Source of the DNA: Pedobacter sp.
Lineage (GTDB): Bacteria > Desulfobacterota > Desulfuromonadia > Desulfuromonadales > Syntrophotaleaceae
Direction of reading: 5' to 3'
DNA length: 64,000 bases
Assembly (NCBI GenBank): GCA_050253415.1
Contig: JBFWJC010000001.1
Coordinates: 1,288,679 to 1,352,678 of the forward strand
The notes beneath the pieces are model-generated. The model made no database searches. It worked only from the letters and a program-made list of their open reading frames with translations, and was not told where the DNA came from. Positions 4,947-20,247 of the stretch are shown here, in pieces (position 1 is the first letter of the stretch; the number at the start of each line of letters is the position of its first letter). The translations under genes and the position numbers were made by a program.

Positions 4947-5101
4947 CATTGCGGAACTTTTAAAAATTGCGGCCTGGCAGGCGGGGTTCCATCATCGTGC
5001 CAAAGTTTCCAGGAGAGGAAAAGGAGGTTTTAGCGTATGTCGTTTGCATGGGGAGGACATGCTTTCAAACCTGCCAGGCCGCATTGCAAGGGCGTTAGGG
5101 G

Positions 5102-5383
5102 TTATTTCCAGGAATTGGGCAAATATTTCAGCCGACCCCGACCGAAGTCGGTGATGGTGAAGGTTTCCAGTAACTTGCCGTGCTCGTCAAGATTGACGTC
5201 GGTTTCCTCGATGAGGCCAGAAGCCCGCATGGAGGTCAGATGGTTTTCAAAGCTTTTTACCGAAAATTGACCCTCGTTGCCGTATTCGGCGCGCAGATCT
5301 TTCATCAGATCGTGTACGTTGGCCTCGGTTTTTGTAGCCATGAGGTGCAAAAGGCGAAACCGCAAAGGAAGTTTGATAGCCAT
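5102..5383 (-). CDS. Small winged-helix-like protein, coupled to the DMT permease
   Basis: 93 aa, MAIKLPLRFRLLHLM...LRAEYGNEGQFS...HLTSMRASGLIE...FTITDFGR. Starts 5 nt after the permease stop. Confidence 0.75.
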   Translation of the reverse strand: MAIKLPLRFRLLHLMATKTEANVHDLMKDLRAEYGNEGQFSVKSFENHLTSMRASGLIEETDVNLDEHGKLLETFTITDFGRGRLKYLPNSWK

Positions 5384-5387
5384 ATTC

Positions 5388-6428
5388 TTATGCTCCCTGA
5401 CGCAGGTTAAGAAGTTCTTTAGGATTACATACAACCAGGATACCACCGACGGTAATGATCAGCCCGCCGACCACCAGGTTGGTCGTCAGTTGCAGGTCGG
5501 TCATAAAGTAGCCGAACACGATGCCCCAGATGACGTAGGTGATATTAAGTGCCATGGCGCGGCCAACACCAGTCATGTTGAGGGATTTATACCAGGCCTT
5601 GTAGGAGATGCCGCCGATGACGCCGGCACAGGCAAGAATCCACAGGCTGTTGAAGGTACCGAGGGCCTGGCCAAGCAGGGCCCAGCCAGCTACAAAGGGC
5701 AGTACGCCGACGATCGAAACGATGCAGGATACCGATTGGCGAATGCTGATAGCGATGTCGGGATCAACCATGTCCATGCCGAAGGTGGAGAGAACGCCTT
5801 CGATGCCCCAGCCGAAGCAGGCCAGCAATGCGCAGCCGATGCCGAGGTAGAAATGAGGCATGGTGCCGCCTTCCGGGGGAGTCCAGCCAACGATCAGTGC
5901 GCCGATAACCGACAGAATGATGCCGCCCCAGACCAGCGGGGTGATTTTTTCTTTGAGAAATACGGCAGCCAGGATGGTGCCGACTACCGGGAACATGGCA
6001 GTGATGGACAGAGCGTAGGAGGCGCCGGCAAACTCGATGCCCAGTAGATAGCCACCCATGGCGATAGGACCACCGAAAACAGCGGCGAGGCATACCAGAA
6101 CACCCGGCCATGTTTTCAATGTGCGGAAAATTTCGCTGCCCCGACCCGAGAGGATATTGGAAAGAGTCAGGAAAATACCGGCAAAGCCGTCGTGCATGGC
6201 GGCACCGACCAGGGGGCCGGTAAAAATTGTTGCGCCGCCAGTAAAGGGAGCCATCGCAAACGCGATACCCATGACAATGCCGGCAAAACCCCAGGAGAGC
6301 CCGCCGAACGCCCCCCACAGAAGGCCCGCTTTGGCGTGGCTCATTTTACGTCTGTTACTCAGATCTCTTGCGATAGCCTTCGACGAGGAAGCGCTACCAA
6401 CCGCTTGTGCTGCGACTCCATTAGCCAT
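5388..6428 (-). CDS. DMT/EamA family transporter (LicB choline-permease-like)
   Basis: About 10 TM helices in two EamA repeats (GGPIAMGGY, FPVVGTILAAVFLKEKI, AMALNITYVIWG). GGAGA SD. Confidence 0.8.
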   Translation of the reverse strand: MANGVAAQAVGSASSSKAIARDLSNRRKMSHAKAGLLWGAFGGLSWGFAGIVMGIAFAMAPFTGGATIFTGPLVGAAMHDGFAGIFLTLSNILSGRGSEIFRTLKTWPGVLVCLAAVFGGPIAMGGYLLGIEFAGASYALSITAMFPVVGTILAAVFLKEKITPLVWGGIILSVIGALIVGWTPPEGGTMPHFYLGIGCALLACFGWGIEGVLSTFGMDMVDPDIAISIRQSVSCIVSIVGVLPFVAGWALLGQALGTFNSLWILACAGVIGGISYKAWYKSLNMTGVGRAMALNITYVIWGIVFGYFMTDLQLTTNLVVGGLIITVGGILVVCNPKELLNLRQGA

Positions 6429-10778: not shown

Positions 10779-11063
10779 GCCTGCCCCCCCCCCTTCTTTT
10801 CAATAATCCTATCTCTCGTTAATTCTTTTTGATATTTCAAACGTTTTACAAACGCCTTGCATATATCATCGCGAGTGGCATGAGGGAGTAATCTCATGTG
10901 CGTCTGTTCATGGATGGCGGGCTCATCGTCGCTGGAGCTATGTCCCTGTGGATTGAATTTTGCGGGTTATATCTATTCCACCCCTATAATTTTGGACATT
11001 ACATACCAAACACAAGAGCAGGCTGCGCACAGGCTTTCGGTGCTAGCCAAGGAGGGATACCTC

Positions 11064-14033
11064 ATGAAAACCAAAAGAAAGACAACGACGGTTCTGCTTG
11101 CCTTGCTGTTCGGGGCGGGCCTGCTCCTGGCGAGTACGGGCGTGTGGGCGCTGGAGTTCCCGAGCGGCGGTGTGCTGGGCCCCGGCACCGACGCCACCGA
11201 CGGCACGGTGGACGGCAGCAGCGTGAAGAACACCGCGATTGGGGCCAGAAGCTGGGCCACCGCGGAGGCCAGCACGGCCATCGGGTATGACAGCACGGCC
11301 ATCGGCGTAGAGAGCACGGCCACCGGCGCATACAGCAGCGCCAACTCAAACTGGAGCACGGCCACCGGTGCAAGCACCACCGCCACCGGGTATCACACCA
11401 CCGCCACCGGGTATCACAGCACGGCCACCGACGAACACAGCACCGCCACCGGTTCATTCAGCTACGCCACCGGGTATCACAGCACGGCCACCGGTAAATC
11501 CAGCACCGCCAGCGGACAATCCAGCACCGCCACCGGCGCATACAGCAGCGCTACCGGCGCAAGCAGCACGGCCACCGGCACAAACAGCAGCGCCACCGGC
11601 ACAAACAGCACGGCCACCGGCGAAAACAGCAGGGCCACCGGCGAATACAGCACAGCCACCGGCCAATACAGCCAGGCGACGGCAACCGCCAGCGTGGCCG
11701 ACGGGCATGGCAGTGAGGCTAGTGGTGTCGGCAGCACCGCCCTCGGGACCAGCAGTATCGCCAGCCAGGCCAACGCCACGGCCACCGGCAGCCTCAGCCA
11801 GGCCACCGGCGAAAACAGCACGGCCACTGGCAGCAGCAGCCAGGCGACGGCAACCGACAGCGTGGCCAACGGGGCCGGCAGTCAGGCCACCGGTGTCGGC
11901 AGCACCGCCCTTGGGACCAGCAGCGTCGCCAACCAGTCCAACGCCACGGCGACCGGTGCCCTGAGCCAGGCCACCGGCGAAAACAGCACTGCCACCGGCT
12001 ACGGCAGCCAGGCCATCGGTGCGAACAGCATCGCCAACGGCTACAACAGTGTTGCCGGCGGCAGCGACAGCGTGGCCATTGGCAGCGGCGCCTCGGCTGG
12101 CTACGCCGGATCTATCAGTCTCGGCAGCGGGGCGACGATTACCGCCGCGTCCGAGCCGATCAATACGCCTGGTGAGATCCCAATCGTTATCCCAGGCTAT
12201 TCCTATGAAGGCGCCATTGCCGTCGGCAACGGCGCCCAAGCCAACGGCAACGACGCAACGGCACTGGGCGACGCCGCCAACGCCAGCGGAGCGCTGGCGC
12301 TCTCCGCCGGTGCTTCGTCCTCGGCAAGTGGCTCCCGCGCAACGGCACTCGGTTACCAGGCCGCCGCCGGCGGTATCAATGCCATCGCCATCGGCAACAA
12401 CTCCTCTGCCAGCTATCTTGACGCCATCGCTATCGGCAGCAACGCCATGATCAGTGCGCCGACGGAACCGGTCAATGCGACGGGCGATATCCCACTTGTC
12501 CTCATCGGCTATCCCTACGAAGGATCGATTGTCCTTGGCAACAACGCCCGGGCCAACGGCAACGCATCGACATCTGTCGGCAACAATGCCAATGCGGCCG
12601 GTGCACTGTCGGTTTCCGTCGGCGCTTCGTCCTCGTCCGCCGGTTCCCGGGCGACGGCCGTCGGCTACCAGACTTCAGCCTCCGGCGTCAATACCGTCGC
12701 CGTCGGCAACAACGCCCAGGCCTCGGCCGATAATGCCATGGCCATGGGGAACGGCGCTTCGGCTGATTACACCGGGGCCATCGCCATCGGCAGCGGGGCG
12801 ACCATCACCGCCCCGACCAGCGGCGGCTCCACCACCGGCGCCATCGCCATCGGCAACAACGCGCGCGCCAATGCCGATCCGTCGGTTGCCCTCGGCAACG
12901 AAGCCGACGCCACCGGTACGGATTCGGTGGCGGTGGGAGATTCCTCCGTCGCCACCGGTGACACTTCGACGGCGATCGGCTACCAGGCCTCCGCTACCGG
13001 CACAAATTCGGTGGCCGTCGGCGCCGGCAGCAGCGACGGCGGAGCGAGCAACGTCTTCGCGGTCGGCTCGGCCAGCCAGACGCGTACAATCATCAACGTC
13101 ACCGCCGGAGAGGTCAGTGCCACCTCGACCGATGCCGTCAATGGCAGCCAGCTTTACGCTACGCAGCAGGATATCGCTGCGCTGCAGACTACCGCCTTCA
13201 GCCAGGCAACGACAATCGTTGATCTGGCGTCTCAGCAGATGACGAATACGACGAACATTGCAACCAACACGACGAACATAGCAACCAATACGACGAACAT
13301 AGCAACCAATACGGCCGGTATTCAGGCGAATTCAATACAGATTCAGGCACTTATCAATGGCGAAGCGGGAGTGTGTACGATTATTAATGGCGCAATGCAG
13401 TGTGCTGCGGGTGCTTCAGCAACCGGCGACGGCGCAATGGCTCTCGGTAATGGTGCGACTGCCGATGGCGACGGCACCATGGCCTATGGGGCAGGTGCCA
13501 GCGCCCAATATGAAGGTTCTATTGCTATCGGTACCGGGGCGCAGGCCAATGCCGACCCCACAACCGCAGTTGGTTACTACGCCATCGCCAACGGCAACAA
13601 CAGCGTGGCACTCGGTGCCAATAGCACTGCGAACGGCGAAAATTCGGTGGCACTGGGGCAAGGCTCGGTTGCCGATTATGATAATACCGTGAGTATCGGC
13701 AATGCCTCGACCGGCCTTGTACGCCGGATAACCAACGTGGCACCGGGTGTTGATGGAACTGACGCCGTTAATATGAATCAACTTCATGGCGAGGTTGACA
13801 AGCTGCGGAAGAGTATCGCTCAAACAGGCGCCATTGCTGCGGCGACAAGCCAGATTGTTTTGCCCCCGGGCTGCCTTAACGGGTTAGGGATTGGCATCGG
13901 CAGCCAGAGTGGCGAGAGTGCCGTAGCTGTGGGGTTCGTCGGGATGCCTCTAAAAAATATGGCGGTCCGGCTTACGGCAGGCACGTCTGGAAGCACGTCC
14001 AGTGTCGGTGGTGGCTTGTCCTTCGGCTGGTAA
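11064..14033 (+). CDS. YadA/Hia-type trimeric autotransporter adhesin (~989 aa)
   Basis: GGAGG SD and signal peptide. 14-aa head repeats (STATGxxSxATGxx, AIAIG), necks (INVTAGEVSATSTDAVNGSQL, ITNVAPGVDGTDAVNMNQL), TNTTNIA stalk repeats, and a C-terminal anchor ending in GLSFGW. Confidence 0.93.
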   Translation: MKTKRKTTTVLLALLFGAGLLLASTGVWALEFPSGGVLGPGTDATDGTVDGSSVKNTAIGARSWATAEASTAIGYDSTAIGVESTATGAYSSANSNWSTATGASTTATGYHTTATGYHSTATDEHSTATGSFSYATGYHSTATGKSSTASGQSSTATGAYSSATGASSTATGTNSSATGTNSTATGENSRATGEYSTATGQYSQATATASVADGHGSEASGVGSTALGTSSIASQANATATGSLSQATGENSTATGSSSQATATDSVANGAGSQATGVGSTALGTSSVANQSNATATGALSQATGENSTATGYGSQAIGANSIANGYNSVAGGSDSVAIGSGASAGYAGSISLGSGATITAASEPINTPGEIPIVIPGYSYEGAIAVGNGAQANGNDATALGDAANASGALALSAGASSSASGSRATALGYQAAAGGINAIAIGNNSSASYLDAIAIGSNAMISAPTEPVNATGDIPLVLIGYPYEGSIVLGNNARANGNASTSVGNNANAAGALSVSVGASSSSAGSRATAVGYQTSASGVNTVAVGNNAQASADNAMAMGNGASADYTGAIAIGSGATITAPTSGGSTTGAIAIGNNARANADPSVALGNEADATGTDSVAVGDSSVATGDTSTAIGYQASATGTNSVAVGAGSSDGGASNVFAVGSASQTRTIINVTAGEVSATSTDAVNGSQLYATQQDIAALQTTAFSQATTIVDLASQQMTNTTNIATNTTNIATNTTNIATNTAGIQANSIQIQALINGEAGVCTIINGAMQCAAGASATGDGAMALGNGATADGDGTMAYGAGASAQYEGSIAIGTGAQANADPTTAVGYYAIANGNNSVALGANSTANGENSVALGQGSVADYDNTVSIGNASTGLVRRITNVAPGVDGTDAVNMNQLHGEVDKLRKSIAQTGAIAAATSQIVLPPGCLNGLGIGIGSQSGESAVAVGFVGMPLKNMAVRLTAGTSGSTSSVGGGLSFGW

Positions 14034-14331: not shown

Positions 14332-15174
14332 TTATTTTATCTGATGGTTGGTGCTTTCACGTATCTTTTGCAACAGTTTAATCGCCTGTTTTCCGCGTTT
14401 TATTTCGGTGGCTTCGATCCTTGCGATTGGCATTATGTCGATGAGAGCGTTGGAGAGAAAGGCTTCATCGGCAAGGATGAGGTCCTTTTTGGAAATGGGG
14501 CGTTCTTCGGTGGCAAGACCGAGAGTCTTTGCAATCTGCAGAATATGCCGACGCATAATGCCGGCCAGGACAACTTCGCCGGCCTCGGGAGTGATCAGGA
14601 TATTGTCTTTGACGATGAACAGGTTGCTGGTTGCGCCTTCAAGAACATGGCCCTCGTCATTGCAGAACAGGGCTTCCCTGGCGCCTTTAGCCTGGGCAAA
14701 GCGGGCGGCATACAGGCAGTCGGCGTAATTGCCGCGTTTCATCTGTGGCAGGTGCGACAGCGGGTTGACGCGCCGGTTGGGAGCGAACACGCAGTTGGCT
14801 CCTGACCGGATCTGGTTTTCATCCGGCTCGACGTAGGCTGAGGCCGTTATCAGCGTGCGGGCGTTTTCCTTCGGTGGGGGCTGCAGGCCTTTGCAGCGGC
14901 CACGGCTCAGGGTAAGGCGCATTCGGGCGACGGGCCATGGCAGTTGCTTGGCGGTTTGCTGCTGGGCTGTTCGGATGGCATCGCGGTCGCAGGGAAAATC
15001 GAGCAGTGCGGCGGACATCTGGATTCTGTCGAGGTGGGCCTCGGCCAGTAATATTGTATTATGGCGAACCTTGATGGTTTCGAACAGGGTGTCGCCAAAC
15101 AGTATGGCACCATCATCGACCGGTAGTCCGGTCTGGTCATCGGCTATAAAAGTACCGTCCAGGTTGACGATCAC
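14332..15174 (-). CDS. pabC: Aminotransferase class IV / 4-amino-4-deoxychorismate lyase
   Basis: GDTLFETIK, HLDRI, KRGNY, EGATSNLF, LAGIMR. Overlaps the pabB-like gene. Confidence 0.75.
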   Translation of the reverse strand: MIVNLDGTFIADDQTGLPVDDGAILFGDTLFETIKVRHNTILLAEAHLDRIQMSAALLDFPCDRDAIRTAQQQTAKQLPWPVARMRLTLSRGRCKGLQPPPKENARTLITASAYVEPDENQIRSGANCVFAPNRRVNPLSHLPQMKRGNYADCLYAARFAQAKGAREALFCNDEGHVLEGATSNLFIVKDNILITPEAGEVVLAGIMRRHILQIAKTLGLATEERPISKKDLILADEAFLSNALIDIMPIARIEATEIKRGKQAIKLLQKIRESTNHQIK

Positions 15175-16538
15175 GGCTTGGTTTCAAGGGCTTGGCGCAG
15201 CGCTTGCCCCTTGTGCAGGCATTCCTGCCACTCGCGGGTCGGGTCGGAGTCGGCAACAATTCCGGCACCGACCTGGTAGGTCAGTTCGTCGCCGAATTTC
15301 TGAAAGGTGCGGATCAGGATGTTAAAATCCATGTTGCCGGTCACGCTGACGTAGCCGGCGCTGCCGGTGTAGGTGCCACGTCCCACCGGCTCCAGTTCCT
15401 CGATGATTTCCATGCAGCGTTTTTTGGGAACGCCGGTGATGGTGCCCCCGGGAAACACGGCCCGCAGCAAGGCAAAGGGGCCAACGTCGTCGCGCAATCG
15501 TCCCCGCACGTTGCTAACGATATGGGTCACATGGGAGTAGTGTTCAAGAACCATCAGCTCATTGACTTCCACGCTGGAGGGCTGGCAGACCTTGCCCAGG
15601 TCATTGCGTTCCAGGTCGAGTAGCATGATATGTTCGGCGCGTTCCTTTGGGTTGTCCAGCAGCTCCCGGCTCAGGCGTTCATCCTCGGGGGTACTTGCGC
15701 CTCTTGGGCGGGTTCCGGCAATGGGGCGAGTCTCGGCCACGCCGTTTTGTAACTGTACCAGTCGTTCAGGGGAGGCGGAGATGATCTCGACATCGGGTGT
15801 ACGCAACAGGGCAGCAAAGGGGCTGGGGTTGATACGACGCAAATGTTGATAGAGATCTTCGGCGGAGAGTTTGCATTGCGTGTCGAAGCGCACAGACAGG
15901 TTGGCCTGGTAGATATCGCCGCTGGAGATGTAATCTTTGGTACGGATGACCCGCTCTTCAAATGCCTTCTGTTGCATGAGCGGTTGTGGGCTTACGACCT
16001 CTTCGGTGTCTGGTTCCGAAAGGGGGGTAGTCAGTACCTGGCGAATCGACTTTTCCCACTGGGTAAGATTGTCCCTGGGGTTGAGGGATGCGACGGTGAG
16101 TATGCGACGCTGATGGTCGTAGATAGCTGTAAGATCGATCCAGTCCAGCCATAACGCAGGGATGCTGCGGTCACGCCGGGCAATGTGGGGCAGGTCTTCG
16201 ATGCAGGCAGCAAGGTCGTAAGCAAGATAGCCAAAAAAACCACCGGCAAACGGTAGCTGAAAAGTATTTGATGAGAGGCGGCGATTGGCCAGGATGCCAT
16301 CGAGAACATCGAACGGGTCTCCCGGCAAATAGGTCTCATCTGTGCCCTCAACGCACATCAATCCCCTTGCGTCGAGACGATAGGACTCCTGACGGCGCAG
16401 CGGTACGATACTGTATCGTCCTATCTGGGAGGTTGGTTGAGGGCTTTCCAGAAAGCCGGGACCCATGGGATAGAGCCGCTGATAAACGACCAGGGGGTCG
16501 AAATGTTCCAGGGGGAAACTGTGCAGGAAACAGATCAT
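15171..16538 (-). CDS. pabB: Aminodeoxychorismate synthase component I (chorismate-binding, TrpE/PabB family)
   Basis: GDIYQANL, SPERL, TRPIAGTRPRG, KERAEHIMLLDLERNDL, FPGGTITGVPK, GAGIVADS. Confidence 0.8.
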   Translation of the reverse strand: MICFLHSFPLEHFDPLVVYQRLYPMGPGFLESPQPTSQIGRYSIVPLRRQESYRLDARGLMCVEGTDETYLPGDPFDVLDGILANRRLSSNTFQLPFAGGFFGYLAYDLAACIEDLPHIARRDRSIPALWLDWIDLTAIYDHQRRILTVASLNPRDNLTQWEKSIRQVLTTPLSEPDTEEVVSPQPLMQQKAFEERVIRTKDYISSGDIYQANLSVRFDTQCKLSAEDLYQHLRRINPSPFAALLRTPDVEIISASPERLVQLQNGVAETRPIAGTRPRGASTPEDERLSRELLDNPKERAEHIMLLDLERNDLGKVCQPSSVEVNELMVLEHYSHVTHIVSNVRGRLRDDVGPFALLRAVFPGGTITGVPKKRCMEIIEELEPVGRGTYTGSAGYVSVTGNMDFNILIRTFQKFGDELTYQVGAGIVADSDPTREWQECLHKGQALRQALETKP

Positions 16539-16725: not shown

Positions 16726-17391
16726 TCAGTCGATGAGTTTTCTTTGCTTGGCAGCCATAACTGCTTCCAGTCGGCTTTTCACATCCAGCTTTTTGAAGAT
16801 GTTTTTGATGTGGGTTTTAACAGTTTCGGTGCTGATGAACAGCGCGTTGCTGATTTCCTTGTTGCCTTGCCCTCTGGCAAGGCAGTCGAGGATCTGTTTT
16901 TCACGCCGGGTAAGGAAGTCGTCGGTCTCATCTTCGTCTTCCTGATCTGGAGCCGTGGCTGTCTGATCCCACTCGATAGCCAGGTCCATGAGGTATGGGG
17001 ACATGGGGTGTTCATTGTTGGCAAAAGCGCGAATCAGGTCGGCCAGTTCGCTGATATCGATGCTTTTGAGAACATAACCGTTCGCTCCGGCCTGCATCGC
17101 TTCCTCGATATAGTGTTTGTCGCTGTAGGAGGAAAGGATCAGCAACGTCATGTCGGGGTATTGTTTGCGCAGCATGCGCACCGCGGCTATGCCGGAAAGG
17201 CCGGGCATGTCGACATCGATAAGGGCTACGTCAGGTGGGTTCAGGGTGATCTTTTCCACGGCCTTGAATCCGTCGTTGGCTTCGCCGATAAAATCGATGT
17301 CCGGATACTGGCTGAGACTCATACGCAGTCCGGTGCGCAAAAGAGGGTGGTCATCAGCCAGGAATACTTTGAATGGTGGGGATTTAGACAT
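16726..17391 (-). CDS. NarL/LuxR-family response regulator
   Basis: LADDHPLLR, LIDVDMPG, and the HTH LTRREKQIL..GNKEI..LFISTETVKTHIKNIFKKL. Confidence 0.93.
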   Translation of the reverse strand: MSKSPPFKVFLADDHPLLRTGLRMSLSQYPDIDFIGEANDGFKAVEKITLNPPDVALIDVDMPGLSGIAAVRMLRKQYPDMTLLILSSYSDKHYIEEAMQAGANGYVLKSIDISELADLIRAFANNEHPMSPYLMDLAIEWDQTATAPDQEDEDETDDFLTRREKQILDCLARGQGNKEISNALFISTETVKTHIKNIFKKLDVKSRLEAVMAAKQRKLID

Positions 17392-17445
17392 GTTGACCTC
17401 CTGGCTGTTTGCAGTAAAACAAAATCTGGTTCGGTATTATTCTAT

Positions 17446-19098
17446 TCAGGCCGACGGTTGTGCTTCGGTGACGGGCAAAGCCAGCACGATGCGCAGGCCG
17501 CCACCGGTTGTTTCAGCCCAAATCTGTCCTTGATGCCCCTCGGCTACCAGCTTACAGAAGTTTAGGCCGAGCCCCAAGCCCTTTTTGCCCGTGGGGTTTT
17601 TGTGGTTCGTCGTATAAAACTTATCGAACAGGGATCCCAGGTCCTCGATGGGAATATGATCGCCGCGGTTGTGGAACGAAACAAAAATGTAAGACTGCTC
17701 TGGATTCAATCGTGGTGTATATCCATGACGGTCAGCCCCTTCCGGGGGCTGTTTGCGGGTTTCGATGGTGACCAGATCCTCTTCATTGCTGAATTTGATA
17801 GCATTGTCCAGTAAGTTGGTGAAGGTGCGCATCAGGCGGATGCGGTCGCCGTAATAGGGTAATTCGGTGTCAAAATCCGATTGATAATCGATGTGGATCT
17901 GCCGATCCTGACAGAAATAGTAAGCCTGATTGACAACTTCCTGCAGCGCCTGGTGGATATCAAACCCATTGCGTCGCAACACCAGCATGCCGTAATTATC
18001 CCGAAACACATCCAGAAAATCCGAGACCATGCCCATCAGGTCATGGTTGGTATCGGCCGCCATTTTGAGAATTTCGCTTTGCTCCTGATTTAATGTTCCT
18101 ACCTGGCCGTCGAGCACCAGCTTGAGAGCGGATTTAATCGCCAGGATAGGGTTGATCATGTCATGCGTGAGCATGCCGAAAAGATCGCTCTTCATCTTTT
18201 CGATATTTTTTTCTTCGGTCATGTCGCGCATCACCGCAACAAATCCCCGTAATTCGCCCTTTTCATTTTCCAGGCGGGAAAAAGACGCATCGACCGAGGC
18301 CAGCTTTTTTTCAGTCAGCATCAAGCCTAGGCTGAGTCGTTCAGGGGTGTTTGTTGTTTCACGTAACCTGTCCAGTTCTCGGAGAACCGGGGTGCGGTCG
18401 AGAAACAAGGACTCGATGGGCTGGCCGGTAAGCTCGGTGTCGGGGCGCTCCAGGGCTTTGAGTAGAGCACGGTTCGGGTTTTCGATGTGGCCGTTGGTGT
18501 CGGTCGCGATAATGTAATCGGAGACGCTGTTGATCAGTTGAAAAATGCGTTTGCGTGAGACGCTTTTCAAGCGTTTGTTGTTGTTCGCCAGGCTGCCGAT
18601 GGTGCTGGCGATGATTTCCAGCAGGGTGGCGAAGTCGTGGAGACGTTCATAGCTGATCTTGGGGATCCGGTATAACGCCTCCATGTAGCCTGCCATATCC
18701 CTTATGCCGATGGCACGGGCATGATGTACCGCAAGGTCGCGGTCAATGACGTAATTCTCCGTTCGAACCTGGCCGCAAATAACCACCGCGACCAGTTGTC
18801 CCTCGACAAGGATGGGCGAAGCGCAATCCACCAGCCCCGAATTGAGGCAGGAATAGATGGCGGGGCCATCTTTGCGCATGGCTTCCCGGGCTCCATACCG
18901 GGCGCTGGCCATGCACTTGTGCATGCCTTCTTGCGTACCGCGGCAAAAGTGAAGACAGAAATCGGAGAAATTGTACGGGCCGGCCAGAATGTTACCCTTG
19001 GGATCATAGATACAGCCACCCATGCGGGTTGCCTTGGTGTAGGCCACCATGATTTTATCAAGGGTGCTTTTATCAATCAGACTTAAAAGGTCGGCCAT
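17446..19098 (-). CDS. Cytoplasmic sensor kinase: PocR domain + PAS + HisKA/HATPase
   Basis: PocR signature (FSDFC..C..YSCLNSGLVDCASPILVEGQLVAVVICGQV), a PAS domain, THDMINP, NLLDNAIKF and GLGLGL. No TM helix. Confidence 0.88.
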   Translation of the reverse strand: MADLLSLIDKSTLDKIMVAYTKATRMGGCIYDPKGNILAGPYNFSDFCLHFCRGTQEGMHKCMASARYGAREAMRKDGPAIYSCLNSGLVDCASPILVEGQLVAVVICGQVRTENYVIDRDLAVHHARAIGIRDMAGYMEALYRIPKISYERLHDFATLLEIIASTIGSLANNNKRLKSVSRKRIFQLINSVSDYIIATDTNGHIENPNRALLKALERPDTELTGQPIESLFLDRTPVLRELDRLRETTNTPERLSLGLMLTEKKLASVDASFSRLENEKGELRGFVAVMRDMTEEKNIEKMKSDLFGMLTHDMINPILAIKSALKLVLDGQVGTLNQEQSEILKMAADTNHDLMGMVSDFLDVFRDNYGMLVLRRNGFDIHQALQEVVNQAYYFCQDRQIHIDYQSDFDTELPYYGDRIRLMRTFTNLLDNAIKFSNEEDLVTIETRKQPPEGADRHGYTPRLNPEQSYIFVSFHNRGDHIPIEDLGSLFDKFYTTNHKNPTGKKGLGLGLNFCKLVAEGHQGQIWAETTGGGLRIVLALPVTEAQPSA

Positions 19099-19406
19099 GA
19101 CATCCTGACTGCCGAATTTTCATGGGAGGCAGATTGTTTAACGCTGATATTTAGTATGTTTAAATAACGGTATTGGATAAAGTCGTATCTTGTTTGAATT
19201 AAGTTATGCTGTTGTCTTTCGATCTTGAAAACATGTTGTATTGTCCCATACTTTGCGGCTTGGATCAAAGCGCAAATTATGGCTGTTTGTGGATCGTTGA
19301 GGGCCTCGCATATTTTCGAGAGTGGGATTCTCCGCAATTTAGCGAAAGAAGCGGCAATGATACATGGTGCGTATAGTTTTTGTGCCCCTAAAAGCTTGTT
19401 AAACTG

Positions 19407-19478
19407 AAAAATCACCCATTTTAGGGATAAAAAACCCCCGGCTTAGCGATGGTGTAACCGAGCCCGTTGGAATATTAT
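19407..19478 (+). promoter_or_regulatory. Tandem 22-bp LuxR/NarL-like operator repeats followed by a -10-like TATTAT
   Basis: aaaaatcacccattttagggat and aaaaaacccccggcttagcgat are 16/22 identical. TATTAT at 19473-19478 has no good -35. Confidence 0.5.
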
Positions 19479-19484
19479 CTCCAA

Positions 19485-19893
19485 ACAGAACGAAGCCTCT
19501 GTGCTCCGATACGTATACAGCATTTTAGATAAATGTGCTGCTCAAAATATTCAAATAATATTGAAACTCGATGCTGTCCGTTGATACCGGGCTTACAATT
19601 CTTCCTCCCCAAGAAAATGTTATCGGCGACTTGATCGCCCCTTTTTTCAACAACACCGTAGGATGGTTTTCTCCGGTGAGAATATAAAAAGTATTCTAAA
19701 TTATTTTCCCTGGCGGTCTGACAAGCAGCGACGGAGTTCTTCCTCCCTTGTGAGCTTTACCGACATTCAAACAAGAGTAATGTGTAACGGTTTGTTGTCT
19801 CCCTCCTCCTAAGCACAATCACGACTGTTTCTGTTGTTGGACCGCAATTTTTATTCAAAAACGCCCCGCAGGGAATTCCCTGCGGGGCGTTTT
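19485..19893 (+). ncRNA. Putative structured sRNA with three anti-SD (CCUCCC) loop hairpins
   Basis: No ORF of 60 aa or more. Multiple stems whose G-U pairs favour the + strand. Ends at a strong terminator. The 5' end is estimated. Confidence 0.55.
19857..19893. terminator. Bidirectional intrinsic terminator
   Basis: aaaacgccccgcagggaattccctgcggggcgtttt is a perfect palindrome with A/T tails. Confidence 0.85.
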
Positions 19894-19941
19894 GTTTTTG
19901 TCATAGAGCAGAAACATCCTTAACATGGAGGTGATGTCTGA

Positions 19942-20247
19942 TTACAGCTGCTGATCTTCCTGGGGCCTTTTGCTGCGATGACCAGGTTTGGCCAGAATTT
20001 CCAGGTAAAAAGAATCGAGTTGTTGTGAATCCGCCTTATCAATAGCTTTATTGATGGCGGAAACATGGATAATTTCACTGCTCGCTTCATCAGCTCCGAA
20101 CCGGCAGTCAAAATCCCAAAAATCGACGCCCGGGGGCAGGCTTTTATTGCGTTCTCTTTTCAGATATTTTTTTACTTCATACTTAATGGCTTCAACACGC
20201 CTTGGACGTTTGATCTTGGGATGGTCGAACGTAAAGTTTTTTTTCAT
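19942..20247 (-). CDS. Conserved small protein (DUF6172-like)
   Basis: MKKNF..EAIKYEVKKYLKRERNKSLPPGVDFWDFDCRFG..FYLEILAKPG. Confidence 0.75.
   Translation of the reverse strand: MKKNFTFDHPKIKRPRRVEAIKYEVKKYLKRERNKSLPPGVDFWDFDCRFGADEASSEIIHVSAINKAIDKADSQQLDSFYLEILAKPGHRSKRPQEDQQL

Follow-up and report, generated by a model that had tools for sequence, protein, structure and literature searches.

The cuckoo RNAs of the Alphaproteobacteria (ar14, CcsR1-4; Rfam RF02344) are Hfq-dependent and repress translation via anti-Shine-Dalgarno (anti-SD) loops; cuckoo and ar14 RNAs lie downstream of a small DUF1127 gene. RsaE/RoxS from the Firmicutes is under two-component control. For both RsaE/RoxS and sX13 from Xanthomonas, the likeness we propose to the RNA described here lies in C-rich single-stranded seeds directed against G-rich ribosome-binding sites, whereas their sequence and fold are unrelated to it. 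To our knowledge, regulatory RNAs are almost unexplored in the Desulfuromonadales, the relatives of Pelobacter and Geobacter, and a literature search found no paper describing an sRNA in Pelobacter.

The RNA discussed here lies on the plus strand of a 64,000-nt stretch of Desulfuromonadales DNA (the window, to which positions refer unless another locus or contig is named). It has in common with cuckoo/ar14 and CcsR1-4 an unpaired motif, CCUCCUCC, with a terminator after it, and the presence of more than one copy per genome. It differs from them in lineage and in that the motif sits within a large clamped domain rather than in two simple hairpins. An Rfam 15 search of 19050-20000, a check proposed in the preliminary description of this region, returned no family at gathering score, and the whole window gave three tRNAs only. 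Sub-threshold matches (trpB motif, His leader, STnc310 and others) were rejected as driven by the terminator. The sole sub-threshold match not centred on the terminator was to ar14, which aligned to 19782-19897 with broken stem pairs at 25.2 bits (E 0.004-0.018), below the gathering score of 58.8. The ar14 model places its CCUCCUCCC loop on 19800-19808; the motif is present, but the stem flanking it pairs in 32/66 cells over 11 copies, and the neighbouring genes encode a PocR kinase and a DUF6172 protein rather than DUF1127. The sX13 model reached 15.5 bits on the RNA region against a gathering score of 50, and the RsaE model gave no match there at E up to 10. The family is new to Rfam, and its functional kind, that of C-rich anti-SD riboregulators, is a known one.

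Members of the family have been printed before. The supplement of the 2012 genome paper on Pelobacter carbinolicus (PMC3543383) prints Pcar_R5019-R5022 under 'Sequences of miscellaneous families (5)', where they are merely listed and aligned as multicopy repeats with their neighbouring genes named; in the accessible parts of this source they are given no structure, strand logic, function or kinase link, and their tags do not occur in the main text. Located with three motifs, the sequences as printed there belong to the same family as the core described below: each starts with TTTCCCTGGCGG, and CCGCAATTTTTA closes three of them, R5020 being printed short. Their printed coordinates agree to within 2 nt with four matches of our covariance model R1 in genome G005, at 4/4 starts and 3/4 ends, and R1, which was built on the window copy and these sequences, scores all of them at 139-167 bits. 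The earlier statement that no such family had been described in this lineage holds for Rfam at gathering score and has to be amended by these four anonymous copies. Relative to the accessible parts of PMC3543383, the new elements are the copy in the window, its 5' module, a cousin RNA and the genus-wide distribution.

Genomic Location and Strand

The RNA lies in the intergenic interval 19099-19941, flanked by a histidine kinase gene (17446-19098, minus strand) and a DUF6172 gene (19942-20247, minus strand). The DUF6172 gene is convergent to the RNA, and no plus-strand gene follows the RNA in the window. On the plus strand CCTCC occurs at 19604, 19742, 19802 and 19805, and GGAGG is absent. At least four CCTCC per 409 nt were found in 183 of 81,956 genome segments of that length with both strands counted (0.22%), and the RNA region belongs to this top 0.22%. 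The features of the locus are collected in Table 1.

Contigs from three RNA-library runs that hold 4-7% of the sampled words cover 19003-19291, at the kinase end, and 19991-20140, in the DUF6172 gene, only, with no coverage in 19308-19967. A scan for sigma-70-like promoters gave three sites against 2.9 expected, none of them on the plus strand between 19253 and 19897.

Several other elements were seen during this survey. On the minus strand of contig C2 of the window's genome (313795-313920) another cluster has four CCTCC in 126 nt, with no surrounding open frame longer than 95 aa and, by eye, no likeness to the RNA family. The window also encodes a YadA-type trimeric autotransporter adhesin of 1045 aa (10896-14033, plus strand), made up of head repeats, a stalk and an anchor. 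Immediately downstream of the response regulator, 14332-16538 on the minus strand encodes a class IV aminotransferase and a chorismate-binding enzyme of the aminodeoxychorismate/anthranilate synthase type; apart from the RNA, nothing nearby is an obvious target operon of the two-component system.

Table 1. Predicted features of the RNA locus, the adjoining operon and the cousin RNA, in window positions.
Feature	Position	Strand	Basis or remarks
Upstream motif AAAAATCACCCnTTTTAGGGATAAAAAACCCCCGGCTTAGCGAT	19407..19450	+	Imperfect dyad CCCAT-TT-TAGGG, 44 nt
5' module	19583..19650	+	Hairpin UUCUU-CCUCCCC-AAGAA, UGUUAUCGG, terminator-like hairpin, U run
Hairpin UUCUU-CCUCCCC-AAGAA	19595-19620	+	Within 5' module; C-rich motif
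Short terminator-like hairpin GGCGA-CUUGA-UCGCC, then U run	19625-19639	+	Within 5' module
Variable linker	19651..19702	+	Local hairpin CACCG...CGGUG at 19655-19679
Core RNA	19703..19854	+	11-copy alignment, RNAalifold, pair counts
Single-stranded AUUUUCCCUG	5' end of core	+	Alignment
Clamp helix P1	19713-19722 with 19836-19845	+	RNAalifold, covariation
Helix P2	19725-19733 with 19826-19834	+	RNAalifold, covariation
Invariant unpaired GAGUUCUUCCUCCCU	19734-19748	+	Alignment
Optional helix P3 (UGUGA/UCACG)	19749-19753 with 19819-19823	+	One compensatory change; competes with hairpin 2
Internal hairpin	19762-19799	+	Varying sequence; in all copies but one
Second C-rich stretch UCCCUCCUCCU	19800-19810	+	
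Invariant tail AAUUUUUAU	19846-19854	+	10/11 copies, one substitution in the other
Intrinsic terminator, 16-bp stem and U tail	19858..19903	+	Stem 19858-19893: 16 pairs, 11 G-C, T run
Divergent two-component operon	16726..19098	-	Pfam; candidate regulator, outside the RNA itself
PocR-PAS-HisKA-HATPase kinase	17446-19098	-	Pfam
REC-GerE/LuxR response regulator	16726-17391	-	Pfam; next after the kinase gene
Cousin RNA (type C)	4960-5093, terminator to about 4900	-	Behind small ORF 5102-5446 with weak sub-threshold PadR match

Structure of the Core RNA

As far as comparison of the copies indicates, the conserved unit is a core of ~150 nt plus an optional 5' module; the single RNA of ~400 nt in the preliminary description is a prediction, as are the RNA ends. 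Eleven copies were aligned across the core with a mean column identity of 73%, and invariant blocks are seen at the 5' end (UUUCCCUGGCGG), at UUCCUCCCU (11/11 copies) and at the 3' end (CCGCAAUUUUUAU). In the RNAalifold structure of the 11 copies, a long helix formed by 19713-19733 and 19826-19845 closes the core. When 23 pairs of the core are counted over the 11 copies, 93.3% of the 253 cells pair (236/253), and 8 of the 23 pairs have changed on both sides. None of 500 shuffles reaches the observed pairing values, and sliding the partners leaves 31-40% paired. The clamp helix carries seven pairs with compensatory changes and is present in the minimum free energy (MFE) structure of all 13 copies folded, and the tail AAUUUUUAU is unpaired in the MFE folds of 13/13 copies.

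The preliminary description had proposed a conserved, structured plus-strand RNA with C-rich anti-SD-like motifs and had named covariation of the stems as a check; the 23-pair covariation and the invariance of the first core motif bear this out. Judged by the alignment, the family is real, conserved, structured, non-coding and of the plus strand. On the minus strand the same cells pair in 201/253 cases (79.4%), the drop arising because 38 cells are G-U. The G-U cells favour plus-strand pairing, and the plus strand is therefore taken as the functional one. The earlier argument from G-U pairs is thereby confirmed in the strand that it favours.

The three-hairpin drawing in which the RNA was first presented does not survive as a whole, as its third hairpin and its long-range pairing fail across copies. 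Hairpin 3 forms 6/6 pairs in the window copy only and pairs in 32/66 cells over 11 copies. The long-range pairing of ttcaacaaca with tgttgttgga is not conserved either, and its strand pairs, with covariation, to 19713-19733 instead. Hairpin 2 (gagttc/gagctt) has an intermediate standing: it is compatible with 89.4% of cells, but it shows no compensatory change and competes with the UGUGA/UCACG helix. A further stem that had been suggested, gaata/tattc, is not kept in the two closest relatives.

In copies carrying it, the second C-rich motif has an unpaired probability of 0.82-0.97. The first CCUCC is largely paired with an upstream GGAG in the MFE structure of 5/13 copies, the window copy included, with an unpaired probability of 0.24-0.35. 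The folding z-score of the whole 416 nt is -4.09 on the plus strand and -3.65 on the minus strand; for the core alone it is -1.58 on the plus strand, where 14/200 shuffles fold as well, and 0.00 on the minus strand. Single-sequence thermodynamics is weak evidence for RNA structure. A likeness of the 5' end of the core to 5S rRNA was considered and rejected, as local alignment to the genome's own 5S rRNA scores 13, below the shuffle mean of 14.2.

The 5' Module, Linker, Terminator and Upstream Motif

The first hairpin of the preliminary description is present in the sequence as the C-rich hairpin of the 5' module, and its C-rich motif is kept in 7/7 module copies. The pattern TCCTCCCMAAR..TGTTATNGG has seven matches in 5/7 genomes of the genus and none in the control. 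All seven occurrences of the module lie 76-113 nt upstream of a core; module and core therefore travel together, within one RNA or as two RNAs in tandem. A 38-aa ORF at 19571-19687 was considered as an alternative for this part of the locus, and a 1-nt indel within the conserved block argues against it. In the linker that follows, the CACCG/CGGUG hairpin has become CGCCG/CGGCG in two close relatives, and distant copies differ in linker sequence.

The strong terminator recognized in the preliminary description is confirmed (Table 1), and from copy to copy its stem has undergone compensatory changes. Being palindromic and flanked on each side by an A/T run, it can also end the convergent DUF6172 gene. 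In the printed flanks, read by eye, a strong or moderate terminator lies 10-20 nt past the tail in 9/14 copies.

Upstream of the module, the motif at 19407-19450 could be aligned in 6/8 copies, exactly those adjoining the kinase gene. It is unique in the genome: a pattern search allowing up to three mismatches gave 19+19 matches against 21+19 for the reversed control, and this site alone had no mismatch. By eye it fits neither the sigma-70 nor the sigma-54 consensus. The motif may serve the RNA as an operator or a promoter.

Distribution and Subtypes

A BLASTN search of the intergenic region against 41 related genomes gave matches in six, the window's own genome (G000) included, all in the window's genus, and one of them had several copies. 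With model R1, 12 copies scoring more than 90 bits and two diverged ones (61 and 38 bits) were detected in 6/7 genomes of the genus, with 1-5 copies in each RNA-bearing genome and a score of 157.8 bits for the window copy. No R1 copy was found in genus member G003, whose genome is 99% complete, nor in the other 144 genomes among 151 sampled from the order, for which stricter filters were applied than within the genus. A scan of one genome per species gave five loci in three records titled Pelobacter sp. or Desulfuromonadales bacterium, all equal to known copies. In metagenomes four loci were obtained, two of them near-identical to copies of genome G002 and two AT-rich chance matches; neither scan added new diversity for covariation.

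Three architectures can be distinguished. Type A, to which the window copy belongs, has the core with the 5' module. The four copies of type B are without this module and have a different upstream region. Read by eye, they carry GGRAYC-N17-GTCWT ending ~3 nt before the core, from whose resemblance we infer a possible ECF-sigma promoter. The second full core copy of the window's genome is of type B (locus L029, C1:528444-528585, minus strand, 148 bits), with its own terminator and an upstream region unlike that of the window copy. Two type-B copies (G005d and G006B) are without a terminator and are followed by an ORF.

Type C is a cousin RNA located elsewhere in the window. Its clamp, GCGGCCUGGCAGG/CCUGCCAGGCCGC, is the same GCGG..CCGC clamp as that of the core, and it holds a UCCUCCC loop on a 5-bp stem (GCAUG-UCCUCCC-CAUGC), a second CCUCC, the tail CAAUUUUUAA and a strong terminator. 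The clamp helix and the invariant CCGCAAUUUUUA tail are thereby common to types A, B and C. A second model, R2, detects the cousin in 5/7 genomes of the genus and, beyond it, in a single genome from a neighbouring genus; its sole other match among the 151 genomes of the order is weak (26.8 bits). Among the genomes searched, the RNA family does not extend beyond a single small genus and a neighbouring one.

At the type-B loci L027 (1654-1705) and L035 (1656-1707), an ORF (MRK..., signal-peptide-like) comes after the core without a terminator in between. The region from SD to start of this ORF resembles an internal stretch of the core, with 10 nt (TATGCGAAAG) identical in L027. This likeness hints that the RNA may have arisen from, or may mimic, a translation-initiation region.

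Association with a Sensor Kinase

In 6/6 genomes, a kinase ortholog with 82-97% identity lies divergent beside a type-A copy. In G003, where the RNA is absent, the kinase was also not found (no match at E 1e-30). Kinase orthologs in other genera have 66-70% identity; in four such genomes the ortholog (68-70%) faces a protein-coding gene instead of the RNA, and at the one of these four that was checked (G011, locus L098) the divergent neighbour is a PDC/Cache sensor protein by Pfam. As the kinase occurs in other genera without the RNA, it is independent of the RNA, whose locus is a novelty at the level of the genus.

This conserved linkage to a kinase/regulator operon is a feature expected of an sRNA under two-component control. 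Judged by synteny and co-occurrence, the PocR-type kinase and the LuxR-type regulator of the divergent operon probably control transcription of the window copy. Loci L098, L099, L100 and L101 have in common a TGTCC..ATACTTTGC block near the kinase start, which is also seen in the window at about 19238-19255.

Proposed Mechanism and Alternatives

An Hfq-type trans-acting RNA that occludes ribosome-binding sites is our best reading of the locus, with a probability of about 0.5; within it, transcription and the RNA ends are predicted, as are the binding of Hfq, the targets and the two-component control. The plus strand from 19583 to 19903 would encode a lineage-restricted regulatory RNA, as one transcript or as two in tandem. 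Its clamped domain of ~150 nt would display the invariant pyrimidine-rich UUCCUCCCU, whose CCUCC we take to be the same core as that at the 3' end of 16S rRNA, and the window copy would add a second CCCUCCUCC stretch. These C-rich seeds may pair in trans with GGAGG-type ribosome-binding sites of several mRNAs and block initiation, and the 5' module would supply a third seed.

Hfq-binding modules consist of an AU-rich stretch, a terminator hairpin and a U tail. Past the clamp, the single-stranded AAUUUUUAU, the terminator hairpin and the U tail would form just this arrangement: the U/A-rich single strand lies immediately upstream of a rho-independent terminator (19858-19893 plus T run). An hfq gene is present in the genome (PF17209, 82.8 bits, 88-aa open frame). 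The conserved single-stranded C-rich letters, taken together with this 3' arrangement and the hfq gene, favour a trans-acting repressor of the Hfq type. Points that speak against this reading are the failure to find a sigma-70-like promoter in position, the pairing of the first CCUCC with an upstream GGAG in 5/13 folds, the leader-like placement of two type-B copies, the kinase orthologs of other genera that face a protein-coding gene, and the large number of ribosome-binding sites to which anti-SD seeds are complementary. The locus offers an sRNA candidate that is backed by covariation and has a clear seed, what is probably a chaperone module, a probable sensor kinase of its own and at least 12 paralogs for comparison; a repeat family catalogued anonymously in 2012 thus becomes a regulator that can be put to the test. 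Should the mechanism be true, it would represent a further independent origin of anti-SD riboregulators.

The same clamped domain might instead show its C-rich and AU-rich strands as a decoy or sponge which titrates a protein or G-rich RNAs and has no specific mRNAs as targets. The invariance of motif and tail across otherwise differing paralogs, the presence of up to five copies per genome, and the recurrence of clamp and tail in all three architectures would fit such a role. It is nevertheless unlikely, as the sequence has no repeated GGA motifs of the CsrA type, we know of no bacterial protein class that binds CCUCC loops, and known C-rich RNAs act by pairing. Multiplicity can also be read at the level of DNA, as a repeat, or what is left of a small mobile element, that is devoid of RNA function and in which a terminal inverted repeat gives the appearance of a helix; copy number ranges from 0 to 5 among species, and the elements appear among the miscellaneous repeat families in the supplement of PMC3543383. 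Against this, the 38 G-U cells are A-C mismatches on the other strand, compensatory changes preserve pairing, the terminators are strand-specific, one copy keeps its place beside the kinase in 6/6 genomes, and neither 72,556 plasmid records nor 50,697 phage records hold a match to the RNA. We consider a DNA-level repeat quite improbable.

A role in cis deserves most attention at the two type-B copies without a terminator, where an ORF with a GGAG SD starts ~70 nt downstream and where the element could be a leader. As a leader or attenuator, the element would sequester the downstream SD with its C-rich motif, or would gate read-through by means of a short internal terminator; the recurrence of the 10-nt core stretch at the start of the downstream ORF would suit the former, and the short hairpin and U run that end the 5' module the latter. 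For the family as a whole this is improbable, since the RNA in the window is followed by a convergent gene and by none on its own strand, a terminator of its own is seen in 9/14 copies when read by eye, and no Rfam riboswitch or leader was found at threshold. A decayed protein-coding gene on either strand is scarcely credible: ORFs of 33-49 aa do overlap the region on both strands, but their lengths and frames vary among copies, a 1-nt indel falls inside the most conserved block, and conservation tracks helices and loops rather than codons.

Candidate Targets

Under the preferred reading, a trans-acting repressor, targets should carry matches to the C-rich seeds at their ribosome-binding sites. 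A search for exact complementarity gave many SD-type matches, and these are weak leads drawn from sequence complementarity. The best lead is a perfect complementarity of 15 nt reaching from the SD to the start codon of the gene for a secreted 262-aa protein, of which 10/11 positions are kept in the G005 ortholog; by our own estimate under a uniform model, a match of 15 nt is expected ~0.1 times by chance. Candidate target sites in the window's genome lie at C1:685649, C3:83310 and C3:107308.

It could further be supposed that the three architectures are lineage-specific, multicopy mimics of the 16S 3' end which tune the translation of secreted and envelope proteins, respond to a PocR-type small-molecule sensor and to envelope stress, and are convergent with cuckoo/RsaE; we hold this extended view to be doubtful. 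Signal peptides or membrane segments are present in 5/6 of the matches that overlap a ribosome-binding site, an envelope excess that was recognized post hoc. Further leads are seen in GGAGGAAGAAC, which immediately precedes the start of a solute-binding protein and that of a Ni-superoxide dismutase.
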